Assembly (NCBI RefSeq): GCF_025526975.1
Contig: NW_026515672.1
Coordinates: forward strand, 62,001 to 126,000
Length of the DNA stretch: 64,000 bases
Reading direction: 5' to 3'
Source of the DNA: Fimicolochytrium jonesii
Lineage: Eukaryota
Positions 1 through 25,003 of this stretch are shown in pieces. Made by a program: the position numbers and the translations under genes. The notes under the pieces were generated by a model. The model was not told the origin of the DNA. It saw only the letters and a program-made list of their open reading frames with translations, and did not search any database. Position 1 is the stretch's first letter; each line of letters begins with the position of its first letter.

Positions 1-3000
1 CCGCAAGCACCGCATCCCACTGGTCAAGAAGGAGGACCCCATTGCGCTTGAACTGGTTGACGGACGTCCCAGCCATGCGGGCTCCATTACCCATCACACC
101 CAACCTTTGGGCATGTGGGTCAACGACCATTTTGAGGAGGTGGTATTCCATGTGACATGTTCCCCGCATGCGCCAATCATCCTGGGGCTTCCCTGGTTTG
201 AGCTCCATGATGTGGAGCTACATTGGAAGACTCGCACTCTTTCCGTCCGCTGCCATTGCGGTTTTAGGACAATACGCCTCCTGGGATGCCCTGCCAACAG
301 AACCTAGCCCGAAGCCCTCAAGAACCCCTGAACCTCTGATCCGTATCCATCAAGACGAGATTTCAGTCTCCCTAGCCCAGACACCCAACACACTGGACCC
401 AGCACCCACACCGATCCACGTATCGTTTATCAGCGCCCCAGCTTTCCGTGTGGCGGCAAGGCATGACCAGGCATTCATTGCCTACGCCAATCCGACCAAG
501 TCAGATTCCCAAGCCCTGGCGACCACTCCTCCAAAAGATCCGAAGGCCATCATTCCTGAAGAATACCAGGATTTTGCGGACGTCTTCGCCAAGAAGAACG
601 CGGATACCCTCCCAGAGCACCGACCCTACGACTGTCCCATCGACTTAGAAGAGGGCAAACAGCCACCGTTCGGCCCGATCTATAGTCTCAGCGAGCCTGA
701 AATGCAGGCACTCTGTGACTACCTTGAAGAGAACCTAGCTAAGGGGTTCATCAAGCACTCCAAGTCTCCCGCCGGTGCCCCAGTCCTCTTTGTCAAGAAA
801 AAGGACGGTTCCCTCCGTCTGTGCGTCGACTATCGTGGACTCAACAATATCACCATCAAGAATCGCTATCCCTTGCCCTTGATTAACAGCATCATGGATC
901 GTCTTCGAGGGGCACGCCGGCTCACCAAGATTGACCTCCGGGGAGCCTACAACCTTCTTCGGATCCGGCCAGGGGATGAATGGAAGACAGCGTTCCGATG
1001 TCGCTACGGCCTATTCGAGTATAATGTCATGCCGTTTGGGCTCACCAATGCCCCTGGAGTATTCCAACACCTCATGAACGACATATTCCGTGACATTCTC
1101 GACGTTTTTGTTGTGGTCTACCTTGACGACATTCTGATCTTCTCAAAAAACCCAGAAGACCACCCCACCCACGTCCGAGAGGTGCTCTCACGACTCCGCC
1201 AGCACGGGCTGTATGCGAAACCGGAAAAATGCGACTTCAACCGTGACTCTGTTGAGTTCCTGGGGTTTATCATCTCCCAGCAAGGCATTTCCATGGACCC
1301 AAAGAAGACGGCTGCCACTACCGAATGGGAATCCCCCGACGAATGTCAAAGGCATCCAGCGCTTCCTTGGTTTTGCCAACTTCTACCGGCGATTCATCAA
1401 AGGGTACTCTGCGATCGTTGCACCCCTGACCACGCTCACTCGCAAAGACTTGCCATTCAAATGGACCCACGCTGCACACCTAGCTTTTGAAACCCTCAAG
1501 AAAGCCTTCACCTCCGCACCTATCCTGACTCACCCCGACCCTGACAAGCCCTTCATTGTCGAATCCGATGCCTCCGACTTTGCCCTTGGCGCCGTCCTCC
1601 TTCAACCCGATGACACAGATCAACTCCACCCCGTGGCCTTTCACTCCCGCAAATTTACTCCTGAGGAAATCAACTATGAGATCTACGACAAGGAACTCCT
1701 GGCTATCCAAGACTCATTTGCTCAATGGCGACACCACCTCATTGGTGCCCGCCACAAGGTCATCGTTTACTGTGACCACAAGAACCTCCAGTACTTCATG
1801 ACTACCCGTACCCTCAACCGCCGCCAATCCCGCTGGTCAATCTTCTTTGCTGATTTCGACTTTGTCATCACATACCGCCCTGGTACCCAGCAACACCAAG
1901 CTGACGCCCTCTCTCGTCGCTCTGAATACGAGCTAAGGGAGGGGGAAGAAGCATTCCGCTCCCAGGAAACCACGATCCTCACCCCTGACCATCTCCGCCT
2001 GGCCGCCACTTATCTGACCCCACTGGACTCCTCGCTCCTTGACCAAATCAAAGCTGCCCTGGCATCCGATGTGTTTGCGCAAACCATCCGGCGACAGCTT
2101 AGGGCCCCCATTGCCCAGCAATCTCAAGAAGACCAAGAACGGATAAAGCGATTCTCCGAGGAAAATGGGGTTCTGCTGTACGACAACCTTGTCTACGTCC
2201 CCACCAACAAGCTCCGTGCTGAGATCTGCCGGGACATGCATGACACGCGTTTGGCAGGACACTACGGCATGTCAAAGACCCTGGAGCTCATCTCACGCAA
2301 CTACTGGTGGCCTAGCCAGTGGCGTTTTGTCAAGTCCTACATCAGGTCCTGCGACGTATGTGCTCAAGCCAAGACCAGCAGACACAAGCCCTACGGTCTC
2401 CTCCAACCCCTGCAGGTCCCTGACCGCCCCTGGGGGTCAATTTCCATGGACTTCATCACGGATCTACCCGCCAGTGATGGGGTTGATTCTGTGCTCGTTG
2501 TCATCTGCCGGTTCACCAAGATGGCGCACTTTGTACCGTGCAGGAAAACTGCCACCGCTGAGTCAACTGCAGATCTGATCTGGCACCATGTCATCCGGCT
2601 CCATGGACTCCCCGACGATATTGTATCTGACCGTGGCCCACAGTTCAACTCCCACTTCTGGAAACGTCTCTTCGCTCTCCTGGGAACCAAGGTCAACCTC
2701 TCATCGGCGTTCCATCCCCAGAGCGATGGACAAACCGAGCGGACCAATCAGATTCTTGAGCAATACCTTCGCTGCTTTTGCAACTATCAACAAGATAACT
2801 GGAAGGAACTCTTGTCTTCTGCTGAGTTCTCTTACAATAACACCATCCACTCCGCCACCCAGACAACCCCCTTCTACGCCAACTATGGGTTCCATCCTCG
2901 ATTCAGTCTGGCTTCCGCCACCACAACCGAATCCCTTAATCCTGCAGCCGAAGCTCGTGCCAACCATCTCAAGGAAATCCATGAACAGCTTGCCACTGAG

Positions 3001-3537
3001 CTCAAGGAGGCCCAAGGACGCATGAAGCGCTTTGCCGATGCTAAGAGGGCACCTGGCCCAGACATGAAACCCGGGGACAGTGTCTGGCTCTTACAGCGGA
3101 ATCTCAAGACTCTCCGACCTTCCCAGAAACTTGATCACCGTAAGATTGGCCCCTTCACAATCACGGAGAAGATCAACTCGGTCACATATCGCCTCAAGCT
3201 TCCCCCATCCTACAAAATTCACAACGTCTTCCATGTCTCCCTTCTTGAACCACGTTTCACCATTCCGGAGCGAACTGAGCCAGAACCCACCCCACCAGAA
3301 GAAGTCGAAGGACAGGAGGAATGGATTGTGGAAGACATTCTTGACTCCCGTATTCGACGCACGCACCTTCAGTACCTCATCAAGTGGCAGGGTTGGCCAA
3401 GCTCGGAGAACACATGGGAGCCAGTGGAACACCTTGCCCGATGTCAAGAGCTTGTTGCCCAGTTCCACCAAAAGTACCCCGACAAACCCCGACCAAAGCC
3501 TGCCAACATCAAAACAACATCCGGACGCCGTGGCTAA
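1..3537 (+). pseudogene. pol: Copy 1 PR (partial)-RT-RH-IN-chromodomain, frameshifted
   Basis: RT motifs LCVDYRGLN and YLDD; RNase H ESDASD; IN HHCC and SMDF/SDRG/TER; chromodomain. An extra T at ~1332 relative to copies 2/3 splits ORFs 168-1490 and 1213-3537. Confidence 0.93.
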
Positions 3538-3549
3538 AGGAGGGGGTGA

Positions 3550-4143
3550 TGTTATGGACGACGCGTCCATACCATGCGCTTACCTCATGACAGCATCCCA
3601 ACAGTCAGTCAATGTCAATTCCCTGTCAAAACCTGACATCTGCCAAACCTCGCAGCCGCACGCAGCCGCGCTACCCCACACCTGCCACTGCCTTCATTTC
3701 TCCAGGCAGCCGCACGTAGCCACACCTCCCAACACTCGGCGCTTACAAACCCTTCTCCATACTTCCCCACGTACCCGCCCACAGCTTCAGCGTAGCCACC
3801 CCATCCCCAGTCTTCTGTTTCCATACTTCCCCACGTACCCGCCCACAGCCTCAGCGTAGCCACCCCATCCCCAGTCTTCTGTTTCTATGCTTCCCCACCC
3901 TTGGCGCTTCTCTTGGCTTCCTTCTCATTCCGTACCCTTCTGCTTCCCCACGCTTCCCCAGCCTTCCCAGAAAAACATAAATAGCCGCCTCCCCTGAGCT
4001 CCCCACTTCCTGATCCCCCAGCAGATCAACACCAGTTCTTCCTAGTCTTGTTCTAGTTCTTGTTTCGGTCTGAATACTATTACCTGTCAACAACCTGCAC
4101 CACAAGTCGCCTCTATTTTCATCGGCTCCGCCCATTCATAACA
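3550..4143 (+). repeat. LTR-a (594 bp), shared between copies 1 and 2
   Basis: Termini TGTTATG...CATAACA; directly after the PPT; internal 64-bp tandem duplication 3756-3883; TATA-like ATAAATA at ~3977. Confidence 0.95.
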
Positions 4144-4194
4144 GTTTGATCTGCTCAACAACCCCCAGCCGCTGTACCTCCACGCCAAATCACC

Positions 4195-5123
4195 ATGTCC
4201 GACGCCCTTCCCCTCACGGCCGAAGCCTGGCAAGCCATGTGCAATGCGATTGACGAACTTCGAGCGCAGAATACCACCCTACAAGCCGAACTAGCGCAAA
4301 GCCAGACCACTGCCCCTGCCACCCACGCCCCCGAACCCAAAATCAGTCTCCCAGACAAATTTGATGGCACCCGAAGCAAGTTCCGTGGGTTCCTCAGTCA
4401 GATCCGGCTCATGTTCGCCCTCCAACCCAGGCGCTACCCCAACGATCAGACCAAGATACGAACTATTGGCACCTACCTCACTGGCACCGCCCAGGCCTGG
4501 CTGGCGCCCCTTGTCGAACAAGACCATCATTCCCTTACGAAACCTGGATGATTTCATCCAGCAAATGCAAGCAGCCTTTGGAGACAGTGACAGGATCCGC
4601 ATGTCCTGAAAACAAGCTCCAGAACCTTCGACAAACCCGTGCAGCAACAGAGTATGTAGCTGAATTCCGACAGCTGCAATGCGATGTGTCGTGGAATGAC
4701 CAGGCATTGATTGCCACCTTCCGTCGCGGCCTCAAAGAAGACGTCAAGGACTTAATGCTCACGATGCCCCCTACCGCCTCAATCGACACCGTGATGGAAC
4801 AGGCCATCCAATGTGACAACCGATTGTTTGAGCGCCGTCTAGAGCAAAGCAGGAACCGACAGCCATATGTGCCAGTTACCACTAGCCCCACCCTCATGAG
4901 CCCCGACAACCGCCCAGACGACCCTATGATCATTGACGCTGCTCGTCCGCGAGGACCCCTCACACCGCTAGAGCGCCAACACCGCATCACAAACAAACTT
5001 TGCCTCTACTGTGGTAAACCCGGCCACATAGCCAAACTCTGCCCGAACAAGATACGCACGGCGAATGTCGCGGTTAAGGAACCTGCACCCATCCAGGATT
5101 TTGCCCAAGTCCAGCTGCAGTAA
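4195..5123 (+). pseudogene. gag: Copy 2 Gag, frameshifted
   Basis: PDKFDG motif and CCHC knuckle CLYCGKPGHIAKLC. Two 1-nt insertions (~4540, ~4606) relative to the intact copy at 9612. Confidence 0.9.
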
Positions 5124-5722
5124 AGGCCGAGCAGCTGGGCAACACCTGTCCTGGGCCTTCTCACCACGCAAGTACTGCCAAGGGAGAAGCCACAAAACCT
5201 TGCTCCGATCCTGGCATCTCCAGCAACACCCTTCTCCTGACCACCAACAATGTCAATCTCCTATCTGAGATACCCTCACCCATGCGGACTTTGGGCCCAT
5301 CCTCACCATTCGAGTACCCTGTTACCCTGCAGATATCGGCCCAGCGAGCTCCAGTTCAGCTTTCAGCACTACTCGACACCGGTGCGATGTCGTGCTTCAT
5401 CGACGAAAGTTATGCCCGCAAGCACCGCATCCCACTGGTCAAGAAGGAGGACCCCATTGCGCTTGAACTGGTTGACGGACGTCCCAGCCATGCGGGCTCC
5501 ATTACCCATCACACCCAACCTTTGGGCATGTGGGTCAACGACCATTTTGAGGAGGTGGTATTCCATGTGACATGTTCCCCGCATGCGCCAATCATCCTGG
5601 GGCTTCCCTGGTTTGAGCTCCATGATGTGGAGCTACATTGGAAGACTCGCACTCTTTGCGTCCGCTGCCATTGCGGTTTTAGGACAATACGCCTCCTGGG
5701 ATGCCCTGCCAACAGAACCTAG
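5078..5722 (+). CDS. Copy 2 aspartic protease, in the -1 frame relative to gag
   Basis: LLDTGA active site and IILGLPW. The frame is open from 5078 and overlaps the gag 3' end. Confidence 0.88.
5096..5159 (+). promoter_or_regulatory. Predicted -1 ribosomal frameshift signal (G GAU UUU + H-type pseudoknot); identical copy at 10511-10574
   Basis: Heptamer phased to gag codons; stem CCAGCTGC/GCAGCTGG; loop AAGGCC complementary to downstream GGCCTT. Confidence 0.75.
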
Positions 5723-8700
5723 CCCGAAGCCCTCAAGAACCCCTGAACCTCTGATCCGTATCCATCAAGACGAGATTTCAGTCTCCCTAGCCCAGACACC
5801 CAACACACTGGACCCAGCACCCACACCGATCCACGTATCGTTTATCAGCGCCCCAGCTTTCCGTGTGGCGGCAAGGCATGACCAGGCATTCATTGCCTAC
5901 GCCAATGCGACCAAGTCAGATTCCCAAGCCCTGGCGACCACTCCTCCAAAAGATCCGAAGGCCATCATTCCTGAAGAATACCAAGATTTTGCGGACGTCT
6001 TCGCCAAGAAGAACGCGGATACCCTCCCAGAGCACCGACCCTACGACTGTCCCATCGACTTAGAAGAGGGCAAACAGCCACCGTTCGGCCCGATCTATAG
6101 TCTCAGCGAGCCTGAAATGCAGGCACTCTGTGACTACCTTGAAGAGAACCTAGCTAAGGGGTTCATCAAGCACTCCAAGTCTCCCGCCGGTGCCCCAGTC
6201 CTCTTTGTCAAGAAAAAGGACGGTTCCCTCCGTCTGTGCGTCGACTATCGTGGACTCAATAATATCACCATCAAGAATCGCTATCCCTTGCCCTTGATTA
6301 ACAGCATCATGGATCGTCTTCGAGGGGCACGCCGGCTCACCAAGATTGACCTCCGGGGAGCCTACAACCTTCTTCGGATCCGGCCAGGGGATGAATGGAA
6401 GACAGCGTTCCGATGTCGCTACGGCCTATTCGAATATAATGTCATGCCGTTTGGGCTCACCAATGCCCCTGGAGTATTCCAACACCTCATGAACGACATA
6501 TTCCGTGACATCCTCGACGTTTTTGTTGTGGTCTACCTTGACGACATTCTGATCTTATCAAAAAACCCAGAAGACCACCCCAACCACGTCCGAGAGGTGC
6601 TCTCACGACTCCGCCAGCACGGGCTGTACGCGAAACCGGAAAAATGCGAATTCAACCGTGACTCTGTTGAGTTCCTGGGGTTTATCATCTCCCAGCAAGG
6701 CATTTCCATGGACCCAAAGAAGACGGCTGCCATTACCGAATGGGAACCCCCGACGAATGTCAAAGGCATCCAGCGCTTCCTTGGTTTTGCCAACTTCTAC
6801 CGGCGATTCATCAAAGGGTACTCTGCGATCGTTGCACCCCTGACCACGCTCACTCGCAAAGACTTGCCATTCAAATGGACCCACGCTGCACACCTAGCTT
6901 TTGAAACCCTCAAGAAAGGCTTCACCTCCGCACCTATCCTGACTCACCCCGACCCTGACAAGCCCTTCATTGTCGAATCCGATGCCTCCGACTTTGCCCT
7001 TGGCGCCGTCCTCCTTCAACCCGATGACACAGATCAACTCCACCCCGTGGCCTTTCACTCCCGCAAATTTACTCCTGAGGAAATCAACTATGAGATCTAC
7101 GACAAGGAACTCCTGGCTATCCAAGACTCATTTGCTCAATGGCGACACCACCTCATTGGTGCCCGCCACAAGGTCATCGTTTACTGTGACCACAAGAACC
7201 TCCAGTACTTCATGACTACCCGTACCCTCAACCGCCGCCAATCCCGCTGGTCAATCTTCTTTGCTGATTTCGACTTTGTCATCACATACCGCCCTGGTAC
7301 CCAGCAACACCAAGCTGATGCCCTCTCTCGTCGCTCTGAATACGAGCTAAGGGAGGGGGAAGAAGCATTCCGCTCCCAGGAAACCACGATCCTCACCCCT
7401 GACCATCTCCGCCTGGCCGCCACTTATCTGACCCCACTGGACTCCTCGCTCCTTGACCAAATCAAAGCTGCCCTGGCATCCGATGTGTTTGCGCAAACCA
7501 TCCGGCGACAGCTTAGGGCCCCCATTGCCCAGCAATCTCAAGAAGACCAAGAACGGATAAAGCGATTCTCCGAGGAAAATGGGGTTCTGCTATACGACAA
7601 CCTTGTCTACGTCCCCACCAACAAGCTCCGTGCTGAGATCTGCCGGGACATGCATGACACGCGTTTGGCAGGACACTACGGCATGTCAAAGACCCTGGAG
7701 CTCATCTCACGCAACTACTGGTGGCCTAGCCAGTGGCGTTTTGTCAAGTCCTACATCAGGTCCTGCGACGTATGTGCTCAAGCCAAGACCAGCAGACACA
7801 AGCCCTACGGTCTCCTCCAACCCCTGCAGATCCCTGACCGCCCCTGGGGGTCAATTTCCATGGACTTCATCACGGATCTACCCGCCAGTGATGGGGTTGA
7901 TTCTGTGCTCGTTGTCATCTGCCGGTTCACCAAGATGGCGCACTTTGTACCGTGCAGGAAAACTGCCACCGCTGAGTCAACTGCAGATCTGATCTGGCAC
8001 CATGTCATCCGGCTCCATGGACTCCCCGACGATATTGTATCTGACCGTGGCCCACAGTTCAACTCCCACTTCTGGAAACGTCTCTTCGCTCTCCTGGGAA
8101 CCAAGGTCAACCTCTCATCGGCGTTCCATCCCCAGAGCGATGGACAAACCGAGCGGACCAATCAGATTCTTGAGCAATACCTTCGCTGCTTTTGCAACTA
8201 TCAACAAGATAACTGGAAGGAACTCTTGTCTTCTGCTGAGTTCTCTTACAATAACACCATCCACTCCGCCACCCAGACAACCCCCTTCTACGCCAACTAT
8301 GGGTTCCATCCTCGATTCAGTCTGGCTTCCGCCACCACAACCGAATCCCTTAATCCTGCAGCCGAAGCTCGTGCCAACCATCTCAAGGAAATCCATGAAC
8401 AGCTTGCCACTGAGCTCAAGGAGGCCCAAGGACGCATGAAGCGCTTTGCCGATGCTAAGAGGGCACCTGGCCCAGACATGAAACCCGGGGACAGTGTCTG
8501 GCTCTTACAGCGGAATCTCAAGACTCTCCGACCTTCCCAGAAACTTGATCACCGTAAGATTGGCCCCTTCACAATCACGGAGAAGATCAACTCGGTCACA
8601 TATCGCCTCAAGCTTCCCCCATCCTACAAAATTCACAACGTCTTCCATGTCTCCCTTCTTGAACCACGTTTCACCATTCCGGAGCGAACTGAGCTAGAAC

Positions 8701-8954
8701 CCACCCCACCACCAGAAGAAGTCGAAGGACAGGAGGAATGGATTGTGGAAGACATTCTTGACTCCCGTATTCGACGCACGCATCTTCAGTACCTCATCAA
8801 GTGGCAGGGTTGGCCAAGCTCGGAGAACACATGGGAGCCAGTGGAACACCTTGCCGGATGTCAAGAGCTTGTTGCCCAGTTCCACCAAAAGTACCCCGAC
8901 AAACCCCGACCAAAGCCTGCCAACATCAAAACAACATCCGGACGCCGTGGCTAA
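5583..8954 (+). CDS. pol: Copy 2 RT-RNaseH-integrase-chromodomain open frame
   Basis: 1123-aa uninterrupted ORF with YLDD, RNase H, HHCC, DDE, GPF module and chromodomain (YLIKWQGW...ENTWEP). Confidence 0.95.
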
Positions 8955-8966
8955 AGGAGGGGGTGA

Positions 8967-9560
8967 TGTTATGGACGACGCGTCCATACCATGCGCTTAC
9001 CTCATGACAGCATCCCAACAGTCAGTCAATGTCACTTCCCTGTCAAAACCTGACATCTGCCAAACCTCGCAGCCGCACGCAGCCGCGCTACCCCACACCT
9101 GCCACTGCCTTCATTTCTCCAGGCAGCCGCACGTAGCCACACCTCCCAACACTCGGCGCTTACAAACCCTTCTCCATACTTCCCCACGTACCCGCCCACA
9201 GCTTCAGCGTAGCCACCCCATCCCCAGTCTTCTGTTTCCATACTTCCCCACGTACCCGCCCACAGCCTCAGCGTAGCCACCCCATCCCCAGTCTTCTGTT
9301 TCTATGCTTCCCCACCCTTGGCGCTTCTCTTGGCTTCCTTCTCATTCCGTACCCTTCTGCTTCCCCACGCTTCCCCAGCCTTCCCAGAAAAACATAAATA
9401 GCCGCCTCCCCTGAGCTCCCCACTTCCTGATCCCCCAGCAGATCAACACCAGTTCTTCCTAGTCTTGTTCTAGTTCTTGTTTCGGTCTGAATACTATTAC
9501 CTGTCAACAACCTGCACCACAAGTCGCCTCTATTTTCATCGGCTCCGCCCATTCATAACA
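8967..9560 (+). repeat. LTR-b (594 bp), shared between copies 2 and 3
   Basis: Near-identical to LTR-a (one substitution seen), same TG...CA termini. Confidence 0.95.
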
Positions 9561-9611
9561 GTTTGATCTGCTCAACAACCCCCAGCCGCTGTACCTCCAC
9601 GCCAAATCACC

Positions 9612-10538
9612 ATGTCCGACGCCCTTCCCCTCACGGCCGAAGCCTGGCAAGCCATGTGCAATGCGATTGACGAACTTCGAGCGCAGAATACCACCCTACA
9701 AGCCGAACTAGCGCAAAGCCAGACCACTGCCCCTGCCACCCACGCCCCCGAACCCAAAATCAGTCTCCCAGACAAATTTGATGGCACCCGAAGCAAGTTC
9801 CGTGGGTTCCTCAGTCAGATCCGGCTCATGTTCGCCCTCCAACCCAGGCGCTACCCCAACGATCAGACCAAGATACGAACTATTGGCACCTACCTCACTG
9901 GCACCGCCCAGGCCTGGCTGGCGCCCCTTGTCGAACAAGACCATCATTCCCTTACGAACCTGGATGATTTCATCCAGCAAATGCAAGCAGCCTTTGGAGA
10001 CAGTGACAGGATCCGCATGTCTGAAAACAAGCTCCAGAACCTTCGACAAACCCGTGCAGCAACAGAGTATGTAGCTGAATTCCGACAGCTGCAATGCGAT
10101 GTGTCGTGGAATGACCAGGCATTGATTGCCACCTTCCGTCGCGGCCTCAAAGAAGACGTCAAGGACTTAATGCTCACGATGCCCCCTACCGCCTCAATCG
10201 ACACCGTGATGGAACAGGCCATCCAATGTGACAACCGATTGTTTGAGCGCCGTCTAGAGCAAAGCAGGAACCGACAGCCATATGTGCCAGTTACCACTAG
10301 CCCCACCCTCATGAGCCCCGACAACCGCCCAGACGACCCTATGATCATTGACGCTGCTCGTCCGCGAGGACCCCTCACACCGCTAGAGCGCCAACACCGC
10401 ATCACAAACAAACTTTGCCTCTACTGTGGTAAACCCGGCCACATAGCCAAACTCTGCCCGAACAAGATACGCACGGCGAATGTCGCGGTTAAGGAACCTG
10501 CACCCATCCAGGATTTTGCCCAAGTCCAGCTGCAGTAA
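9612..10538 (+). CDS. gag: Copy 3 Gag, intact (308 aa)
   Basis: Retrotransposon gag motifs (PDKFDG, EYVAEF, FRRGL) and CCHC knuckle. Confidence 0.93.
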   Translation: MSDALPLTAEAWQAMCNAIDELRAQNTTLQAELAQSQTTAPATHAPEPKISLPDKFDGTRSKFRGFLSQIRLMFALQPRRYPNDQTKIRTIGTYLTGTAQAWLAPLVEQDHHSLTNLDDFIQQMQAAFGDSDRIRMSENKLQNLRQTRAATEYVAEFRQLQCDVSWNDQALIATFRRGLKEDVKDLMLTMPPTASIDTVMEQAIQCDNRLFERRLEQSRNRQPYVPVTTSPTLMSPDNRPDDPMIIDAARPRGPLTPLERQHRITNKLCLYCGKPGHIAKLCPNKIRTANVAVKEPAPIQDFAQVQLQ

Positions 10539-13500
10539 AGGCCGAGCAGCTGGGCAACACCTGTCCTGGGCCTTCTCACCACGCAAGTACTGCCAAGGGA
10601 GAAGCCACAAAACCTTGCTCCGATCCTGGCATCTCCAGCAACACCCTTCTCCTGACCACCAACAATGTCAATCTCCTATCTGAGATACCCTCACCCATGC
10701 GGACTTTGGGCCCATCCTCACCATTCGAGTACCCTGTTACCCTGCAGATATCGGCCCAGCGAGCTCCAGTTCAGCTTTCAGCACTACTCGACACCGGTGC
10801 GATGTCGTGCTTCATCGACGAAAGTTATGCCCGCAAGCACCGCATCCCACTTGTCAAGAAGGAGGACCCCATTGCGCTTGAACTGGTTGACGGACGTCCC
10901 AGCCATGCGGGCTCCATTACCCATCACACCCAACCTTTGGGCATGTGGGTCAACGACCATTTTGAGGAGGTGGTATTCCATGTGACATGTTCCCCGCATG
11001 CGCCAATCATCCTGGGGCTTCCCTGGTTTGAGCTCCATGATGTGGAGCTACACTGGAAGACTCGCACTCTTTGCGTCCGCTGCCATTGCGGTTTTGGACA
11101 ATACGCCTCCTGGGATGCCCTGCCAACAGAACCTAGCCCGAAGCCCTCAAAACCCCTGAACCTCTGATCCGTATCCATCAAGACGAGATTTCAGTCTCCC
11201 TAGCCCAGACACCCAACACACTGGACCCAGCACCCACACCGATCCACGTATCGTTTATCAGCGCCCCAGCTTTCCGTGTGGCGGCAAGGCATGACCAGGC
11301 ATTCATTGCCTACGCCAATCCGACCAAGTCAGATTCCCAAGCCCTGGCGACCACTCCTCCAAAAGATCCGAAGGCCATCATTCCTGAAGAATACCAAGAT
11401 TTTGCGGACGTCTTCGCCAAGAAGAACGCGGATACCCTCCCAGAGCACCGACCCTACGACTGTCCCATCGACTTAGAAGAGGGCAAACAGCCACCGTTCG
11501 GCCCGATCTATAGTCTCAGCGAGCCTGAAATGCAGGCACTCTGTGACTACCTTGAAGAGAACCTAGCTAAGGGGTTCATCAAGCACTCCAAGTCTCCCGC
11601 CGGTGCCCCAGTCCTCTTTGTCAAGAAAAAGGACGGTTCCCTCCGTCTGTGCGTCGACTATCGTGGACTCAACAATATCACCATCAAGAATCGCTATCCC
11701 TTGCCCTTGATTAACAGCATCATGGATCGTCTTCGAGGGGCACGCCGGCTCACCAAGATTGACCTCCGGGGAGCCTACAACCTTCTTCGGATCCGGCCAG
11801 GGGATGAATGGAAGACAGCGTTCCGATGTCGCTACGGCCTATTCGAGTATAATGTCATGCCGTTTGGGCTCACCAATGCCCCTGGAGTATTCCAACACCT
11901 CATGAACGACATATTCCGTGACATTCTCGACGTTTTTGTTGTGGTCTACCTTGACGACATTCTGATCTTCTCAAAAAACCCAGAAGACCACCCCAACCAC
12001 GTCCGAGAGGTGCTCTCACGACTCCGCCAGCACGGGCTGTATGCGAAACCGGAAAAATGCGAATTCAACCGTGACTCTGTTGAGTTCCTGGGGTTTATCA
12101 TCTCCCAGCAAGGCATTTCCATGGACCCAAAGAAGACGGCTGCCATTACCGAATGGGAACCCCCGACGAATGTCAAAGGCATCCAGCGCTTCCTTGGTTT
12201 TGCCAACTTCTACCGGCGATTCATCAAAGGGTACTCTGCGATCGTTGCACCCCTGACCACGCTCACTCGCAAAGACTTGCCATTCAAATGGACCCACGCT
12301 GCACACCTAGCTTTTGAAACCCTCAAGAAAGCCTTCACCTCCGCACCTATCCTGACTCACCCCGACCCTGACAAGCCCTTCATTGTCGAATCCGATGCCT
12401 CCGACTTTGCCCTTGGCGCCGTCCTCCTTCAACCCGATGACACAGATCAACTCCACCCCGTGGCCTTTCACTCCCGCAAATTTACTCCTGAGGAAATCAA
12501 CTATGAGATCTACGACAAGGAACTCCTGGCTATCCAAGACTCATTTGCTCAATGGCGACACCACCTCATTGGTGCCCGCCACAAGGTCATCGTTTACTGT
12601 GACCACAAGAACCTCCAGTACTTCATGACTACCCGTACCCTCAACCGCCGCCAATCCCGCTGGTCAATCTTCTTTGCTGATTTCGACTTTGTCATCACAT
12701 ACCGCCCTGGTACCCAGCAACACCAAGCTGACGCCCTCTCTCGTCGCTCTGAATACGAGCTAAGGGAGGGGGAAGAAGCATTCCGCTCCCAGGAAACCAC
12801 GATCCTCACCCCTGACCATCTCCGCCTGGCCGCCACTTATCTGACCCCACTGGACTCCTCGCTCCTTGACCAAATCAAAGCTGCCCTGGCATCCGATGTG
12901 TTTGCGCAAACCATCCGGCGACAGCTTAGGGCCCCCATTGCCCAGCAATCTCAAGAAGACCAAGAACGGATAAAGCGATTCTCCGAGGAAAATGGGGTTC
13001 TGCTGTACGACAACCTTGTCTACGTCCCCACCAACAAGCTCCGTGCTGAGATCTGCCGGGACATGCATGACACGCGTTTGGCAGGACACTACGGCATGTC
13101 AAAGACCCTGGAGCTCATCTCACGCAACTACTGGTGGCCTAGCCAGTGGCGTTTTGTCAAGTCCTACATCAGGTCCTGCGACGTATGTGCTCAAGCCAAG
13201 ACCAGCAGACACAAGCCCTACGGTCTCCTCCAACCCCTGCAGGTCCCTGACCGCCCCTGGAGGTCAATTTCCATGGACTTCATCACGGATCTACCCGCCA
13301 GTGATGGGGTTGATTCTGTGCTCGTTGTCATCTGCCGGTTCACCAAGATGGCGCACTTTGTACCGTGCAGGAAAACTGCCACCGCTGAGTCAACTGCAGA
13401 TCTGATCTGGCACCATGTCATCCGGCTCCATGGACTCCCCGACGATATTGTATCTGACCGTGGCCCACAGTTCAACTCCCACTTCTGGAAACGTCTCTTC

Positions 13501-14364
13501 GCTCTCCTGGGAACCAAGGTCAACCTCTCATCGGCGTTCCATCCCCAGAGCGATGAACAAACCGAGCGGACCAATCAGATTCTTGAGCAATACCTTCGCT
13601 GCTTTTGCAACTATCAACAAGATAACTGGAAGGAACTCTTGTCTTCTGCTGAGTTCTCTTACAATAACACCATCCACTCCGCCACCCAGACAACCCCCTT
13701 CTACGCCAACTATGGGTTCCATCCTTGATTCAGTCTGGCTTCCGCCACCACAACCGAATCCCTTAATCCTGCAGCCGAAGCTCGTGCCAACCATCTCAAG
13801 GAAATCCACGAACAGCTTGCCAGTGAGCTCAAGGAGGCCCAAGGACGCATGAAGCGCTTTGCCGATGCTAAGAGGGCACCTGGCCCAGACATGAAACCCA
13901 GGGACAGTGTCTGGCTCTTACAGCGGAATCTCAAGACTCTCCGACCTTCCCAGAAACTTGATCACCGTAAGATTGGCCCCTTCACAATCACGGAGAAGAT
14001 CAACTCGGTCACATATCGCCTCAAGCTTCCCCCATCCTACAAAATTCACAACGTCTTCCATGTCTCCCTTCTTGAACCACGTTTCACCATTCCGGAGCGA
14101 ACTGAGCCAGAACCCACCCCACCAGAAGAAGTCGAAGGACAGGAGGAATGGATTGTGGAAGACATTCTTGACTCCCGTATTCGACGCACGCACCTTCAGT
14201 ACCTCATCAAGTGGCAGGGTTGGCCAAGCTCGGAGAACACATGGGAGCCAGTGGAACACCTTGCCCGATGTCAAGAGCTTGTTGCCCAGTTCCACCAAAA
14301 GTACCCCGACAAACCCCGACCAAAGCCTGCCAACATCAAAACAACATCCGGACGCCGTGGCTAA
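10493..14364 (+). pseudogene. pol: Copy 3 PR-Pol, disrupted
   Basis: Two 1-nt deletions (~11095, ~11150) relative to copies 1/2, and a CGA>TGA nonsense change at 13726-13728 in integrase. Confidence 0.92.
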
Positions 14365-14376
14365 AGGAGGGGGTGA

Positions 14377-14906
14377 TGTTATGGATGACGCGTCCATACC
14401 ATGCGCTTACCTCATGACAGCATCCCAACAGTCAGTCAATGTCAATTCCCTGTCAAAACCTGACATCTGCCAAACCTCGCAGCCGCACGCAGCCGCGCTA
14501 CCCCACACCTGCCACTGCCTTCATTTCTCCACGCAGCCGCACGTAGCCACACCTCCCAACACTCGGCGCTTACAAACCCTTCTCCATACTTCCCCACGTA
14601 CCCGCCCACAGCCTCAGCGTAGCCACCCCATCCCCAGTCTTCTGTTTCTATGCTTCCCCACCCTTGGCGCTTCTCTTGGCTTCCCTCTCATTCCGTACCC
14701 TTCTGCTTCCCCACGCTTCCCCAGCCTTCCCAGAAAAACATAAATAGCCGCCTCCCCTGAGCTCCCCACTTCCTGATTCCCCAGCAGATCAACACCAGTT
14801 CTTCCTAGTCTTGTTCTAGTTCTTGTTTTGGTCTGAATACCATTACCTGTCAACAACCTGCACCACAAGTCGCCTCTATTTCCATCGGCTCCGCCCATTC
14901 ATAACA
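14377..14906 (+). repeat. Terminal LTR-c (530 bp)
   Basis: Only one 64-bp unit and about 7 substitutions versus LTR-a/b; followed by non-element sequence GACAC. Confidence 0.95.
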
Positions 14907-15874
14907 GACACGCCGATAATACTGTTGGCGCTGCGCTCGGCTGATTCCGGCTCTACGGAGATGCAGTACGACTTGCTTCAAACCAAGCCTTTCATTGACA
15001 TAGCGCAGAAACATTTGCATAAAATGCTCCTGTATGTTGACTTTGAGGTTGGTGAAGATGCTCGTAGCTGTGTACGCTGCGGTCTGTTGGCTATTGCGCA
15101 TGCAGATGGGGGCAAATCCGTGAACATTACAGTACTCTTGAACCCGTGGACGCAACTCTTGCGTGATGGTCGGACTGCCATTGTGGCCGGGGTTGTTTAG
15201 CAGCTCAAATATCACACAAATGTGCTTGTCGGTAGTGTCCGGGAAATCGGGTAGAGGATGATCGGCTGCGGTGGGCACGTAGTAGTCAGGACATTATTTC
15301 ATGGGAACCATACAGTGTACCTCAAAAACTTACCAAGGTAGTACTTGAGAAAGAAGGTGGTGTGGCGCGCAAGGACGTGAACATTGCCGATGAACGTTGT
15401 CAGGCGCCCCCTTTGCACTTGATTGTGATTTTGGATTCAGTGAAGGGAAACCTTCGTGCTGGCATGCGTCTGCGGGCGGGGTCGTTGAACTGGTGGTGGA
15501 GGTGGGGCTTCAAGCACCAGGGATCCACCCGGTGTGCTGGGAAAACGGGAAGGGATGGGAGCGGGGAGGTTCAACGGACGCTGCAGACCCCTGTCGACGG
15601 GTGAAAGCCCTCGCTGCTGGTGCTGTTGCCCGTCTTCATCGCCAGAACTCTCGCTAACCATGTCTGCGATTGCTTGGGGCAAGTGGCGCTGGACAGATGG
15701 TGGGAACTCGAATCGAGGGCGCGGGGCCTGCAATGGCGTCTGTACGGCGGGTGGCAGACGTATGGGCAACCGCGGGGTAACTGGAGCAACCTTCCTCCTC
15801 TTCTGCCGTGGTGTGGTTGCTCCAGTAAATATGCCACACCACAGGTGCCCCTGGAGCGCTTGGTGTGATGACAT
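14907..15874 (-). pseudogene. N-terminal half of a Fanzor1 RNA-guided nuclease gene, interrupted by the LTR array
   Basis: Spliced translation (intron 15266-15333): ...THASTKVSLH*...VHVLARHTTFFLKYYL/ADHP...IFELLN...VQEYC...TNLKVNIQEHFMQMFLRYVNERL. This is colinear with SpuFz1 as recalled (TNLKVNVQEHFMQMLLRYIN). NLS-like PRQKRRK; in-frame TGA at 15437-15439. Confidence 0.85.
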
Positions 15875-16355
15875 GTTGGCTGTGCTGTGCTGTGCTGTGC
15901 AGGGAGGTTAGATTGATCTGTTCTAGGTAGTGTGAGGGATTGCTGTTGTTACCTGGAGGTGGTCGGCGGGATGTGTACTGTACAGAGGTGTTGGCAATTG
16001 CATTGGGAAGGAAGTAGGTTGGGAAGCAGGTGAGGAAGGAGAGATGGGCCTACGTCCGAGATCCATTTTTGGAGGTAAGAAGCTTGATATATTCCACGGC
16101 GTCTTTATATATGAATCTCCATGTTCTTGTGCGATACAGAGTGTGGCTTGGACCAGCGAAGAAAAAAGCCCAGCCATTGCTACGCTTGCTTATGGGAATG
16201 GGGGGAAGGGAATGGGGGGAAGCGGGGGGTATGGCACTGACAGCACTGGATATTCGACAGCTCAGCGGAGTATGTACGTACAGTCTACACATATTGCCGT
16301 GCTATGGGACTGGGGCCTAGGTCCTATTACAGGCGGTCCTCGACTGAAAATCAAC

Positions 16356-17071
16356 TGTAACGCGTCTATGGCCCGTTACTAACCGTTACTACCGCTACCT
16401 ATGGCCCGTTACTATGGAGCCGCTGGTTATTTACAGCCTTCACGCTCGGATTCACAGCCTTCACGCTCGGTTTTACAGCCTTCACACTCGGCCTCTTACA
16501 GCATTCTGGACCTGGCTTCCGTCGCTTCTATTAGAGCCGTGGCCAGCCTTGTACCCATAGCTGCAGGTTTTCTTCACCAGTTCTTCCACACCCACTCACC
16601 GCCATTGCCACCGCCATTGCCACCACCATTGCCATCGCCATTGCCATTGCTTGAGGCAGCTCGGAATAGGAGCAGCCTCGCGATACGCTACCTTCTCGAC
16701 TCGCGATCGCCCGAGGCAGCTCGGAATAGGAGGTGCGCACTCGCGGTACGCTCTCTCAACTTCCGCAATCGCTTGACTCGAGTGGTTTCCTCCAGCATCT
16801 CAGCGTTTCAAGACCAAGATTCCGTGGCCCAATCCCCAGATTCCGTTGCCCATTCCCCATTACACTACACTAGAAGAAGTTATGACCACTGCCGGCACGG
16901 CCAGGCGTGGTATTCACTGCCGGCACGGCCAGGCGTGATTGTTAACTATCTTCTGGTGTGCCTGGTGCCTGGTGAATGGTGAATGGTGAATGGTGAAGCG
17001 ACCTCGGCTCTCGCTCCACAACCGATGAACAGTTATGACCACTGCCGGCACGGCCAGGCGTGATTGTTAAC
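16356..17071. repeat. Cluster of short direct/tandem repeats, possibly a mobile-element remnant
   Basis: 21-bp x3 (16431-16492); GCCATTGCCACC runs; 20-bp x2 (16653, 16713); 23-bp CACTGCCGGCACGGCCAGGCGTG x3 (16887, 16915, 17040); GGTGAAT runs. Confidence 0.7.
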
Positions 17072-18391
17072 CCTACTTCTGTGTTGGAGGTGCTGTGTTC
17101 TGCGCTTGGGTCCGTCTGCATTTTGAGCTGTGCTGTACGGTCATGGACATCGGTGTCCACGTCGTCGCCGAAGAAGACGAAGAATATCGCAGATCCAGCG
17201 TTCCCGTATAGGCAGAACTAGACATCGTCACTCGTCCTTGACACTCATCCCTCTGCGTAGCACCTCACCCGGCAACCGTGATGCTTCACCCTTACCTGAA
17301 CCCATGGCCGATACTCCTACTACCTCGGTTCCCACGACTGAGCACGTCCCACAACTTTCCTAGACCATCGACGACACTTCCGTTGGCCGTACTACTCGCT
17401 CTACCCGACAACCCAAGGGCAAGGCCTCCGGCCCGTCGGCCACGGTCGCTTCTGCGTCCGCCACCGCTACGATCACTGCCACGGTTACTTCGACTGAGCC
17501 CCGGTCCGCGGTGACTGAGCCTACCAAAAACAAGGTCATTCGGGTCAGATCGGTTGCCCCTGCTACATCGGTCGAACTTCCTCCGGTTACCTCTGTTACC
17601 TCTATTTCTATTCCACTGCCTCTTTTTCCCACGTAGGTTCCGCCGCCTCCCCCCGGTTTTCCCCTGCCCTATCCGCCCCTCTTCCCGAACCCGTACGTCG
17701 CCGGCATTCCCACGCTTGGCGCTTCCGTCGCGCCCTTCCCCTGCAGCACCCAGGGAACCACCCGACCGCCCCGGCGTGCAGACCTACGGGCATACTCTCT
17801 CCGGCCGGCGTGTCCTCTGGGTCTGGGTAACGGACAGTCCAGCTTTCGTATCTATATACAAGACCTCCGTGATGCTCTCATTTTCTGTGATGTGAAAGTG
17901 AAATGTATAGCGCATCGGCCCTTTTGTCTTACTCTCTCGTCTGTTGGACGTCTGCATATGATATGCTGGAACTTGCCTGGAAGGGCAGTGGTGTGATGAA
18001 CCCTGCGAGTCATTATATATGTATCTATATACAAGACAAAGCATTTGATACGTACAATACATGCAATTGATACCGCACTAAGATAGCCACGCCAATATTG
18101 AACGGCATCCTACTCCGCCATCCTACTCTGCCTTCGTGGCCTTCATTGCATCCTCCAGCTTCATGGCATCAATAAACTTCCTGTCCTCCTCCTCAGATTT
18201 GATCTCCTCGAATTTTATCTCCAGTTTCATCTTCTTTGCCGGTTTTCTGTTCTCCTTCCAATTCTTACACTTCTTCTTTATCTTACAAAGCCCCTTCTCG
18301 TCCTGCATATGTATTCTATGTTATGTACAGGTGAATAGGTTTTCCGCCTTGCGTTGCGTGGGTATATGTGTACACAAGACAGTGTGATTTC

Positions 18392-19890
18392 TCAGTCGTC
18401 GTGATGCCGCTTGCGAGGGTTGTCGGGCGGTGGGAGTGATGGGGGGACGTCTCGCACGCCTTCGCTCTGTCAAAAGGAAAGGAGGAATCGAAGCGTGAGC
18501 ATGCGGTTGCCGCCCTACCCAATGCCCCCAGAATCAAGTTCGGAAACCCACCGTAATACAAAACCCCACAGTCCTCTCCGGCAAACTCGGACTCTTAACC
18601 AAACAAGCCCTCCGTACCCCCTGGTCCCAAAACAAAATTACCCGATTCGTACACGCATGCCCCCACGTCGCCCCCAGCGCCGGCACCAACACCGCATCGC
18701 CCTCCCCCGTCCCCATCTCCCCACCGACTTTCGTAGTCATCTGATTCATCACAACAACCGCGCACGTAAACTCCTCCGCACACCTGCGTAGAGTCTGGGC
18801 GGTTGTGTTTAATAAGCGGGCGCGGAGGGGCATATCAGCTTGGGAGAAGGCTTGGCGGAAGTGGAAGGCGATTGAGTCGATTATGATGAGTTTTATGTTG
18901 CGGTGGGTGGAGAGGAAGGAGGGGAGTTGGTGGGTGAGGGCGACTTGGGCGGTGGGGGAGTGAATGCGGAGGATGTGGATGCGGGAGAGGAGGGTTGAGA
19001 CGGGTGGGGGTGGGATGTCTGGAGGAGGATATAAATGAGCGGTCTGGCGGCATTGGAAGGAAGAGCGCGGAGGTGGAATCCCCTTTCCCGACTGCATACA
19101 TGCCATACCTGCCGCCCGAGGATCTGTCGCCATGAGCCGTTCCGCCGCCGCCGCAATCTCAGCCACGCGCTCAATAATGAAGCTTCCTTCCGTATCTAAA
19201 CCACGTTGTCGTGAGCGAATGAGTGCATTCCTGACGGGTCGAGCCCCACCCCAAGAATCAAAGCATACCAACATACAACGCCTCCCCCCCAGCCCCACCC
19301 AACACCTCCGGCAACTGCACATTCACACACGCCTGCATCCTAACCGTAGCCGCATCAGTCTCGCCCCATCCTTTTATACACCATGCAATATTACACATCA
19401 ACCCACCCAATTTGAGTCTTCCCCAACCCGGGCGGCCCACACACCTCCGTCACCTTCCCGGCCGAGAACCCGCCACCGCCGAGCATGTCGTCGAGCGCTT
19501 TGCAGGAGGTGGTGATGGAGGCGCGGCGGCGTTCGACAGAGAGGGCTTCGAGGGCTGATATAGATTTTGGTGGGTCTGGTTGAAACGACGGAGGCCTGTG
19601 GGTGAGTGAGGTGCAGTGCTGGTGGGAGATTGGTGATGTGGGGACGTACTACGTTGGATTTGTCGGTGAATACGAGCTGAATCTTCAAGCGTGCCTCCTA
19701 TCCCTATCACCAATCACCCGTATCAGATATGATTGTCATCAGGAACGGGGCACAACTTTTGCAGTAACATACGCTGAGCGAGCGGACCTGGCTGCAGACT
19801 CTCGACGTCTGAGGCGCTTCTGAGGCCTGCATTGTGGAGACGGACGCGCAGGTCTTGGTCTAGGTTGAAGGTTGCGAGGGGGCGGTGCAT
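18392..19890 (-). CDS. RAD51C: RAD51 paralog, RAD51C-like (multi-exon)
   Basis: Walker A CGPPGLGKTQ, YIDTEGSF-like, Walker B LIIIDSIAFHFR, NQMTT, PALGATWGH, KSP. Confidence 0.88.
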
Positions 19891-23266: not shown

Positions 23267-23520
23267 CTTGAGAAGGCAGTATGTGCAACGGGAGCGTACG
23301 GAGTGTGCCGAGGGGGATGGGAGAGAGAGCGAGAAAAAAGCACACTTGGGGCAAAGTGAACACCTCGTCTCAGAGTCGTCTGCCCCTCCTCCAAGTTCCA
23401 TCCCGCAACCATCTTGAAAAACCGACAACCAGCAAGGAATATCGACAAGCGGCCTTCGGGACACACGCTTCTGGCCCTCGTCTCCTTACGTGCGGGGAAG
23501 CCCCTCCTGTGATACTCGAT

Positions 23521-25003
23521 ATGCGTCGAACAGCTCTCGCAACAGGCCGTAGGCTGCACTCAGCACACCTGTCAACTCGGCGACCTCAACCAAGTCATCT
23601 TGACCGTGTCCCGCCACTTTCCTCAAGCTTATTCTCCCGCACTCCCAAACGAGCCCTATACTCAACCCCCAACACCAACGCAGACTCACCCCGCTTCCCC
23701 TGCGTCGAACGAAACCAAGAACGCGAACGCTCCCTAGACGGCGGGCCCGAACCTGCCTACGAGAACGTCGTGTCCGGCTACAAGACCTTCCACTACCCGC
23801 ACCCCTTCACCTTCGTCCACGGGGGCAGCCTCCCTTCCTTCAACATCGCCTACGAAACATGGGGCACCCTCAACGAGTCCAAATCGAACGCCATTCTCCT
23901 TCATACAGGTTTGAGCGCCAGCAGCCACGCAAAGAGCCACGCGCGGAATACGAACGATGGGTGGTGGGAGAAGTTCATTGGGCCTGGATTGGCGATTGAT
24001 ACCGACAAGTTCTTTGTGATTTGCACAAATGTGCTTGGAGGGTGTTACGGGACAACCGGCCCGCATAGCGTCGACCCATCACGGCCGGGGCAGGAGCGCT
24101 ACGGGACGCGGTTCCCCATCATCACAATCTGGGATATGGTGCGCGCGCAGTTCAAGCTGCTGGACGCACTAGGGATCCGGAAACTGCACGCCAGCGTCGG
24201 CGCCTCAATGGGCGGCATGCAATCCCTCGCCGTCGCGGCCCTCCGTCCCGATCGCGTAGGGAGGGTGGTCAGCATCTCCGCCGCGGCGCGCTCCCACCCG
24301 TACTCCATCGCCCTCCGACATACGCAGCGCTCCGTCCTCATGTCCGACCCGAACTGGAAACAGGGGTTCTATTACGACTCCGTTCCGCCGCATGTGGGGA
24401 TGAAACTTGCGCGACAGATCGCGACCATTAGCTACCGATCGGGTCCCGAATGGGAGCAGAGGTTCGGTACCAAACGCGCGAAACCGGACGAACCGCCGGC
24501 TCTTTGTGCGGATTTCCTCATCGAGACGTATTTGGACCATCAAGGGGAGAGGTTCTGCTTGCAGTATGATCCGAACTCGTTGTTGTATATCTCTAAAGGT
24601 ACGTGGACGGGTCGATATCTCTCATTGCTTCGGTCCACCTCATCTTCCCGAATCCACAGCAATGGATATGTTTGACATGTCCCTCCTCCCCACCCTCCTC
24701 ACCCCCGACGAATGCCTCGCCGCACCCTCCTCCCCCTCTCCCGTCCCCTCCTCCTCCACCACCTCTCCGTCCCCGCTAACGCGCGCCCTAACCCGCCTGC
24801 AAATGCCCACCCTAGTTCTCGGCGTGCAATCCGACATCCTCTTCCCGCACTGGCAACAAAAAGAGATTGCAGCCTGCCTGAAAGACGCCGGGAACGCCCA
24901 CGTGACGTATTACGAGCTGGATGCGCTGTATGGGCATGATACGTTCTTGATTGATGTGAATGGGATTGGGGGGGCTGTTAAGGGGCATTTGGAGTTGGCT
25001 TGA
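23521..25003 (+). CDS. Serine O-succinyltransferase / homoserine O-acetyltransferase family (Cys2-like), probably mitochondrial
   Basis: [16 protein letters not shown] nucleophile, SDILFP, GHDTFL; Arg-rich N-terminus; intron 24599-24659. Confidence 0.9.

Follow-up and report, generated by a model that had tools for sequence, protein, structure and literature searches.

The minus strand of positions 14907 to 15874 in the 64,000-nt stretch of Fimicolochytrium jonesii DNA analyzed here (referred to as the window) holds, with high confidence, codons 1 to 300 of a Fanzor1 gene of the SpuFz1 type. A single 68-nt intron and a single in-frame TGA interrupt the coding sequence, which ends beside the terminal CA of the last long terminal repeat (LTR) of a retrotransposon array. 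We regard this copy as a nonfunctional relic, produced most likely by the insertion of a retrotransposon into a once complete gene. The original prediction had described the same locus as a Fanzor1 gene cut by the array, with one spliceosomal intron, a single readthrough TGA, a proline-rich N-terminal extension, and an NLS-like motif, and all of these features are present in the sequence; its estimate of the significance of the locus, on the other hand, was overstated, as the transposon family is known and the window copy is an ordinary fossil within it.

The assignment to Fanzor1 comes from protein searches. When the 147-aa open reading frame (ORF) was compared with the PDB, it matched SpuFz1 of Spizellomyces punctatus (8GKH, chain 8gkh_P) with an E value of 4.2e-14, and the only other match (E = 0.31) was due to chance. 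The part encoded by exon 2 corresponds to chain residues 500 to 562; the chain numbering of 8gkh_P is offset by 394, as checked on the TAM-reading residues Q129, Q130, and N133 (the Q-Q-x-x-N motif). In a collection of 5.8 billion proteins, all 18 matches were F. jonesii proteins annotated as "uncharacterized" (E values from 1e-19 to 1e-64, 58 to 93% identity). Because a host gene in the window (positions 23272 to 24672) matches an F. jonesii protein at 100% identity, we treat these proteins as paralogues, that is, as copies residing in the same genome as the window. Among these, the 732-aa P0006 matches SpuFz1 with an E value of 1.5e-133 over residues 138 to 713 and Parasitella PpFz1 with an E value of 1.9e-34. 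The spliced reading of the window copy is colinear over residues 1 to 300 with 11 of the 18 paralogues at 74.8 to 87.7% identity. Pfam detected no family in either piece of the window gene (there was one chance match, E = 0.2) and nothing at E ≤ 0.01 in the full-length paralogues; with E values of up to 5 allowed, the paralogues gave a weak match to the Cas12f1-like TNB domain alone (E = 0.16). Many of the matches from the N-terminal and C-terminal protein searches carry a precomputed Pfam label, PF26935.

Joining the two exons by script on the minus strand (15874 to 15334 and 15265 to 14907) gives 900 nt, or 300 codons with one TGA. Exon 1 (15334 to 15874) encodes codons 1 to 180 and the first base of codon 181. 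Its open stretch begins with the ATG at 15874 to 15872 and runs to the TGA, which is codon 146 (15437 to 15439), and past the TGA the frame reopens and continues to 15334; in tblastn searches with the paralogues, identity over 15874 to 15329 was 80 to 89%. Exon 2 (14907 to 15265), which is shortened at its 3' end, encodes codons 181 to 300, the first part of the REC domain, and its final codon is Val300 (14909 to 14907). The second open stretch, 15293 to 14850, contains the peptide TNLKVNIQEHFMQMFLRYVNERL at 15053 to 14985, the TNLKVN...NERL helix of exon 2, which lies 79 nt from the end of the LTR. Apart from the TGA, the 300 codons contain neither a frameshift nor a further stop.

The predicted spliceosomal intron (15266 to 15333, minus strand) has the expected landmarks: GTAAGT at 15333 to 15328, a CTGAC branch motif at 15289 to 15285, and CAG at 15268 to 15266, with the branch motif 20 nt ahead of the 3' CAG. 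Its length of 68 nt is not divisible by 3, and the unspliced frame reaches a stop after 11 more codons. Colinearity with the paralogues was obtained only once the intron was removed. The splice junction YYL|A|DHPL agrees in the alignment with the paralogue proteins, which read Y-Y-L-A-D-H-P at that place, and the junction stretch aligns through P0006 to the intronless SpuFz1 free of gaps; the position of the intron, as originally proposed, is therefore right, given that the spliced reading is colinear with the paralogues and, through them, with SpuFz1. Two automatic gene models show that the putative intron is a feature of the family: the model of P0170 reads through the homologous intron and then stops, and the model of P0004 uses a different 3' splice site.

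Upstream of the part shared with SpuFz1, family members have a proline-rich, NLS-like extension of about 115 to 135 aa (residues 1 to about 135 in the window copy). Proline accounts for 17.8% of residues 1 to 145 versus 4.6% of the remainder of the fragment. The NLS-like basic motif PRQKRRK (residues 22 to 28; positions 15791 to 15811, minus strand) lies inside the extension and is conserved as P-R-R/Q-K-R-R-K in 10 of 10 aligned paralogues; from the motif, it is predicted to direct nuclear import. When the extension was searched against 1.84 billion representatives, it retrieved four members of the F. jonesii Fanzor1 family (E values of 1e-37 or better) and one other protein, with a weak, low-complexity match; a search of the ESM Atlas returned no usable match to it. 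Gaertneriomyces and S. punctatus proteins, as annotated, have no such extension. Thus, the extension appears to be restricted to the F. jonesii Fanzor1 family among the 1.84 billion representatives, and we consider it mildly new.

The first 14,906 nt of the window are filled by head-to-tail retrotransposon units on the plus strand with a period of 5413 to 5417 nt, comprising at least three internal parts and, within the window, three LTRs. A partial internal part of unit 1 (1 to 3549), with the array continuing beyond the left end of the window, is followed by the first LTR (594 nt, 3550 to 4143), the internal part of unit 2 (4144 to 8966), the middle LTR common to units 2 and 3 (594 nt, 8967 to 9560), the internal part of unit 3 (9561 to 14376), and the last LTR (530 nt, 14377 to 14906). 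Unit 2 contains gag at 4365 to 5120 and an open 1127-aa pol frame at 5571 to 8951, which is unbroken in this unit only; the domains detected are Retrotrans_gag, RVT_1, RNase H, the integrase zinc-binding and core domains, SH3_Tf2-1, and a chromodomain. In unit 3, gag-pol is split over several frames, and the polypurine tract AAAGGAGGGGG stands at its end, directly before the LTR start TGTTATG; the LTR ends with CATAACA. With its TG..CA LTR ends, polypurine tract, gag, RT-RNase H-integrase order, and C-terminal chromodomain, the array is classified from its sequence as a tandem Ty3/Gypsy chromovirus, oriented opposite to the Fanzor gene. It resembles other chromodomain Ty3/Gypsy elements, including those in the Fz loci of S. 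punctatus, in its LTR ends, polypurine tract, and gag-pol order; it differs from known chromoviruses in being a tandem array with at least three internal parts that share LTRs.

Divergence within the array is low in the internal parts, which are 99.4 to 99.5% identical (99.4% between units 3 and 2), and between the first and middle LTRs, which differ at 1 position in 594. The last LTR lacks one 64-nt internal repeat unit and, relative to the first, shows 7 mismatches over 530 aligned bases in addition to this 64-nt indel. Two of the seven mismatches are CpG/TpG changes, four are other C/T transitions, and one is a transversion; the decay of the LTRs is not exclusive to CpG sites.

Alignment of the three repeat ends shows that the units part from the flank precisely after the terminal A at 14906. 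Coding homology to Fanzor1 breaks at this same LTR terminus, inside a run of conserved codons, which bears out the original claim that the gene is cut at the retrotransposon array. The first five flank bases past the LTR, GACAC (14907 to 14911), are a candidate half of a target-site duplication, whose second copy would fall beyond the window, and, read on the minus strand, form part of the last two intact Fanzor1 codons. We propose that a Fanzor1 element, complete until then, was hit at codon 300/301, which corresponds to roughly residue 186 of SpuFz1 in REC, by a chromovirus-type LTR element, and that this LTR element would then have grown into the LTR-internal-LTR-internal-LTR array by unequal LTR recombination. 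Under this scenario, the rest of REC, the WED domain, the RuvC D/E/D triad, the zinc finger, and the 3' omegaRNA end would be found to the left of the array; we infer that the missing nuclease half is likely to lie there, beyond the array and outside the window.

The alternative to insertion is that a Fanzor fragment and an LTR were brought together by some later rearrangement. In its explicit form, the C-terminal half was lost, either by ectopic recombination between two LTR elements or by deletion, so that the left flank of the array would be unrelated DNA and the window copy an orphan fragment. We consider this unlikely, though deserving of serious attention. It is consistent with the absence of C-terminal Fanzor sequence from the 64 kb: tblastn with 18 paralogues gave matches confined to 14892 to 15908, 13 of the 18 ending exactly at 14907, and none to a C-terminal Fanzor half anywhere in the window, even though many of these paralogues extend hundreds of residues beyond the break. 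It is also compatible with the annotation. The C-terminal half has 25 matches among F. jonesii proteins of 233 to 744 aa, of which P0003 alone is encoded on a contig of 1,222,081 nt, the size of the contig carrying the host gene. Since P0003 comes with an N-terminus of its own, the annotation in this size range shows no orphan C-terminal half on such a contig. The lack of such a protein is weak evidence, however, because pseudogene halves often go unannotated and because the search spanned proteins of 233 to 744 aa only. Finally, the seven mismatches and the 64-nt indel of the last LTR, set against the 1 difference in 594 of the inner LTRs, are compatible with different LTR histories. On the other side, the break coincides exactly with the LTR terminus and lies within conserved codons, as integration predicts, and tandem arrays that arise by unequal LTR exchange retain both original flanks. 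We therefore favor insertion into a complete gene.

Whichever way the break arose, the window copy is predicted to be a dead Fanzor1 relic, a pseudogene of a multicopy family inactivated by a stop codon and by truncation. We judge it dead because the TGA occupies an arginine column, because homology is lost at 14907, and because many of its residues are private. In the aligned paralogues, the TGA column holds Arg in 9 of 10 sequences and Gln in 1 of 10; the stop would thus be derived from CGA or AGA by a single base change, possibly from CGA to TGA at a CpG site. Residues private to the window copy number 15 of 297, the second highest count among 11 sequences. On the SpuFz1 sequence, the break falls in REC near residue 186, and everything after about this residue is missing from the window copy. 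By the residue assignments in the accessible part of PMC10432273, the loss includes the rest of REC (R260 and R268), the second part of WED (R291 and Y345), and the RuvC triad (SpuFz1 D383, E541, and D606); the CCCC zinc finger (NUC/TNB domain) is also missing. The 3' end of the gene, where the omegaRNA would be encoded, is not in the 64-kb window, over which Rfam gave 0 matches.

A living gene, whose TGA would be bypassed by readthrough or recoding and whose short N-terminal product (the extension and a portion of REC) would have been domesticated, would fit the fact that the TGA is the sole lesion in the 300 codons, but we find it highly improbable: the paralogues encode Arg where this copy has the TGA, the frame enters the LTR after codon 300 and stops 16 codons on, every catalytic and RNA-binding domain is missing from the fragment, and the share of private substitutions is high. 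That the likeness to Fanzor is accidental and the two ORFs have nothing to do with each other, as the failure of Pfam to find a family in either piece might suggest, has a negligible chance of being true and is refuted by the match to SpuFz1 at 4.2e-14, by that of P0006 to SpuFz1 at 1.5e-133, and by colinearity with 11 paralogues at 75 to 88% identity.

Of little weight in itself, the window copy indicates that F. jonesii harbors a large Fanzor1 family. The N-terminal and C-terminal searches combined yielded 29 F. jonesii protein clusters, all labeled "uncharacterized" and all apparently partial or mis-modeled; the paralogue proteins are automatic gene models. In a survey of motif landmarks, none of the 29 models held all landmarks together, and we therefore consider the annotation of this family fragmentary and unreliable. 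The three catalytic positions were found in 4 of the 29 models (P0013, P0140, P0142, and P0143), each of which begins inside or after REC, and the zinc finger was found in some paralogues. The longest models, P0006 and P0003, end in an apparent shifted reading of the second zinc-finger pair of P0014, and the N-R-D motif is missing from them. Many copies of the family have probably decayed. Outside F. jonesii, relatives of the C-terminal half come from Gaertneriomyces sp. (57% identity) and S. punctatus (46%), the others being 42 to 45% identical. A 466-aa protein related to the Fanzor1 C-terminal half at 37% identity (P0166) is labeled as belonging to a Bacteroidota metagenome bin; the 3277-nt contig that encodes it may be eukaryotic and mis-binned.

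Of the TAM-reading REC residues of SpuFz1 (R96, Q129, Q130, and N133), Q129 and Q130 are kept in the window copy and in P0006 as aligned, whereas N133 is replaced by Ala (window positions about 15120 to 15105). Since N133 is Ala in the family, its TAM is predicted to differ from that of SpuFz1, that is, it may be other than CATA. Intact family members would act like SpuFz1, which the window copy cannot do. Any such member would be closely related to the genome-editing enzyme SpuFz1, would bring an NLS-like N-terminus of its own, and would likely recognize another TAM. Its ORF is predicted to span about 768 aa, as estimated by adding the missing N-terminus to P0013.

F. jonesii and S. punctatus belong to one fungal order, and full-length F. 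jonesii paralogues are about 46 to 53% identical to SpuFz1, the protein of the SPu-1 element and a member of the same protein family. According to the available part of PMC10432273, SpuFz1 is an omegaRNA-guided, TAM-dependent double-strand DNA endonuclease encoded on a small transposon flanked by inverted repeats (IRs). As far as the accessible text of PMC10432273 and PMC3627910 describes it, SPu-1 is a 2.1-kb, single-ORF, IR-flanked element with terminal inverted repeats of 30 to 33 nt, and there are 42 Fz loci in S. punctatus. On the one hand, the two families are alike: in the portions of these two sources that could be consulted, the S. punctatus family, as in F. jonesii, is multicopy with many partial copies, and Ty3/Gypsy elements sit inside its Fz genes (PMC10432273), so the window copy adds one case to a published pattern of Ty3/Gypsy nesting in Fanzor elements. 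On the other hand, SPu-1 has, in the same partial sources, one intronless ORF of 633 to 638 aa, whereas the F. jonesii family has the 68-nt intron and the 115 to 135 or so extra N-terminal residues.

We are evenly divided on whether the F. jonesii Fanzor1 lineage gained the intron and the proline-rich, NLS-like extension of about 115 to 135 aa within one fungal order, once it had separated from the SPu-1 and Gaertneriomyces forms, which have neither intron nor extension, together with the change of the TAM-reading N133 to Ala and hence a predicted new TAM. If so, the gain of the intron and extension would mark a recent, datable step by which an RNA-guided nuclease became adapted to the eukaryotic cell. 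The accessible part of Jiang et al. 2023 (PMC10530073) reports, across Fanzors, the capture of introns and N-terminal regions with a functional NLS, and the Fanzors described there likewise combine a spliceosomal intron with a disordered-looking N-terminal extension bearing a basic motif; in contrast to them, the NLS of the F. jonesii family is predicted from its motif alone. Precedents thus exist in print for introns and N-terminal NLS extensions of Fanzor genes and for Ty3 insertions into them. A full-text literature search linked no publication on Fanzor with Fimicolochytrium, and neither this name nor the locus-tag prefix occurs in the supplementary text of PMC10530073 or PMC10432273 that is searchable, which in each case is a part of the whole. 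The F. jonesii Fanzor1 family, with its lineage-restricted extension and intron and its N133-to-Ala change, is therefore mildly novel, having no description in the searched literature.

The 5' boundary of the Fanzor element can be placed only roughly: compared with the upstream readthrough of the gene models P0016 and P0017, copy-to-copy similarity ends at about 15886 to 16010. Self-BLAST of 14907 to 18533 against the window returned local short repeats only, with no ghost element or IR partner, and a scan for promoters and terminators of the bacterial type, a model not applicable to eukaryotic DNA, found nothing. Two public sequencing runs were compared with 13500 to 18500. They gave no match to the Fanzor part of this interval; one 249-nt contig fell on the LTR, one 151-nt piece was identical to 16483 to 16633, and the remaining matches were short pieces of low likeness on simple repeats. 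The 151-nt piece is a soil-metagenome contig, and the intergenic stretch it matches bears 21-nt and 12-nt tandem repeats. The rest of the window includes ordinary host genes, among them those for a Rad51-family protein (18534 to 19319, minus strand), homoserine O-acetyltransferase (23272 to 24672, plus strand; the gene with 100% identity to an F. jonesii protein), a WW/FF-domain TCERG1-like protein (30039 to 32542, minus strand), and VPS13 (40968 to 49005, plus strand).
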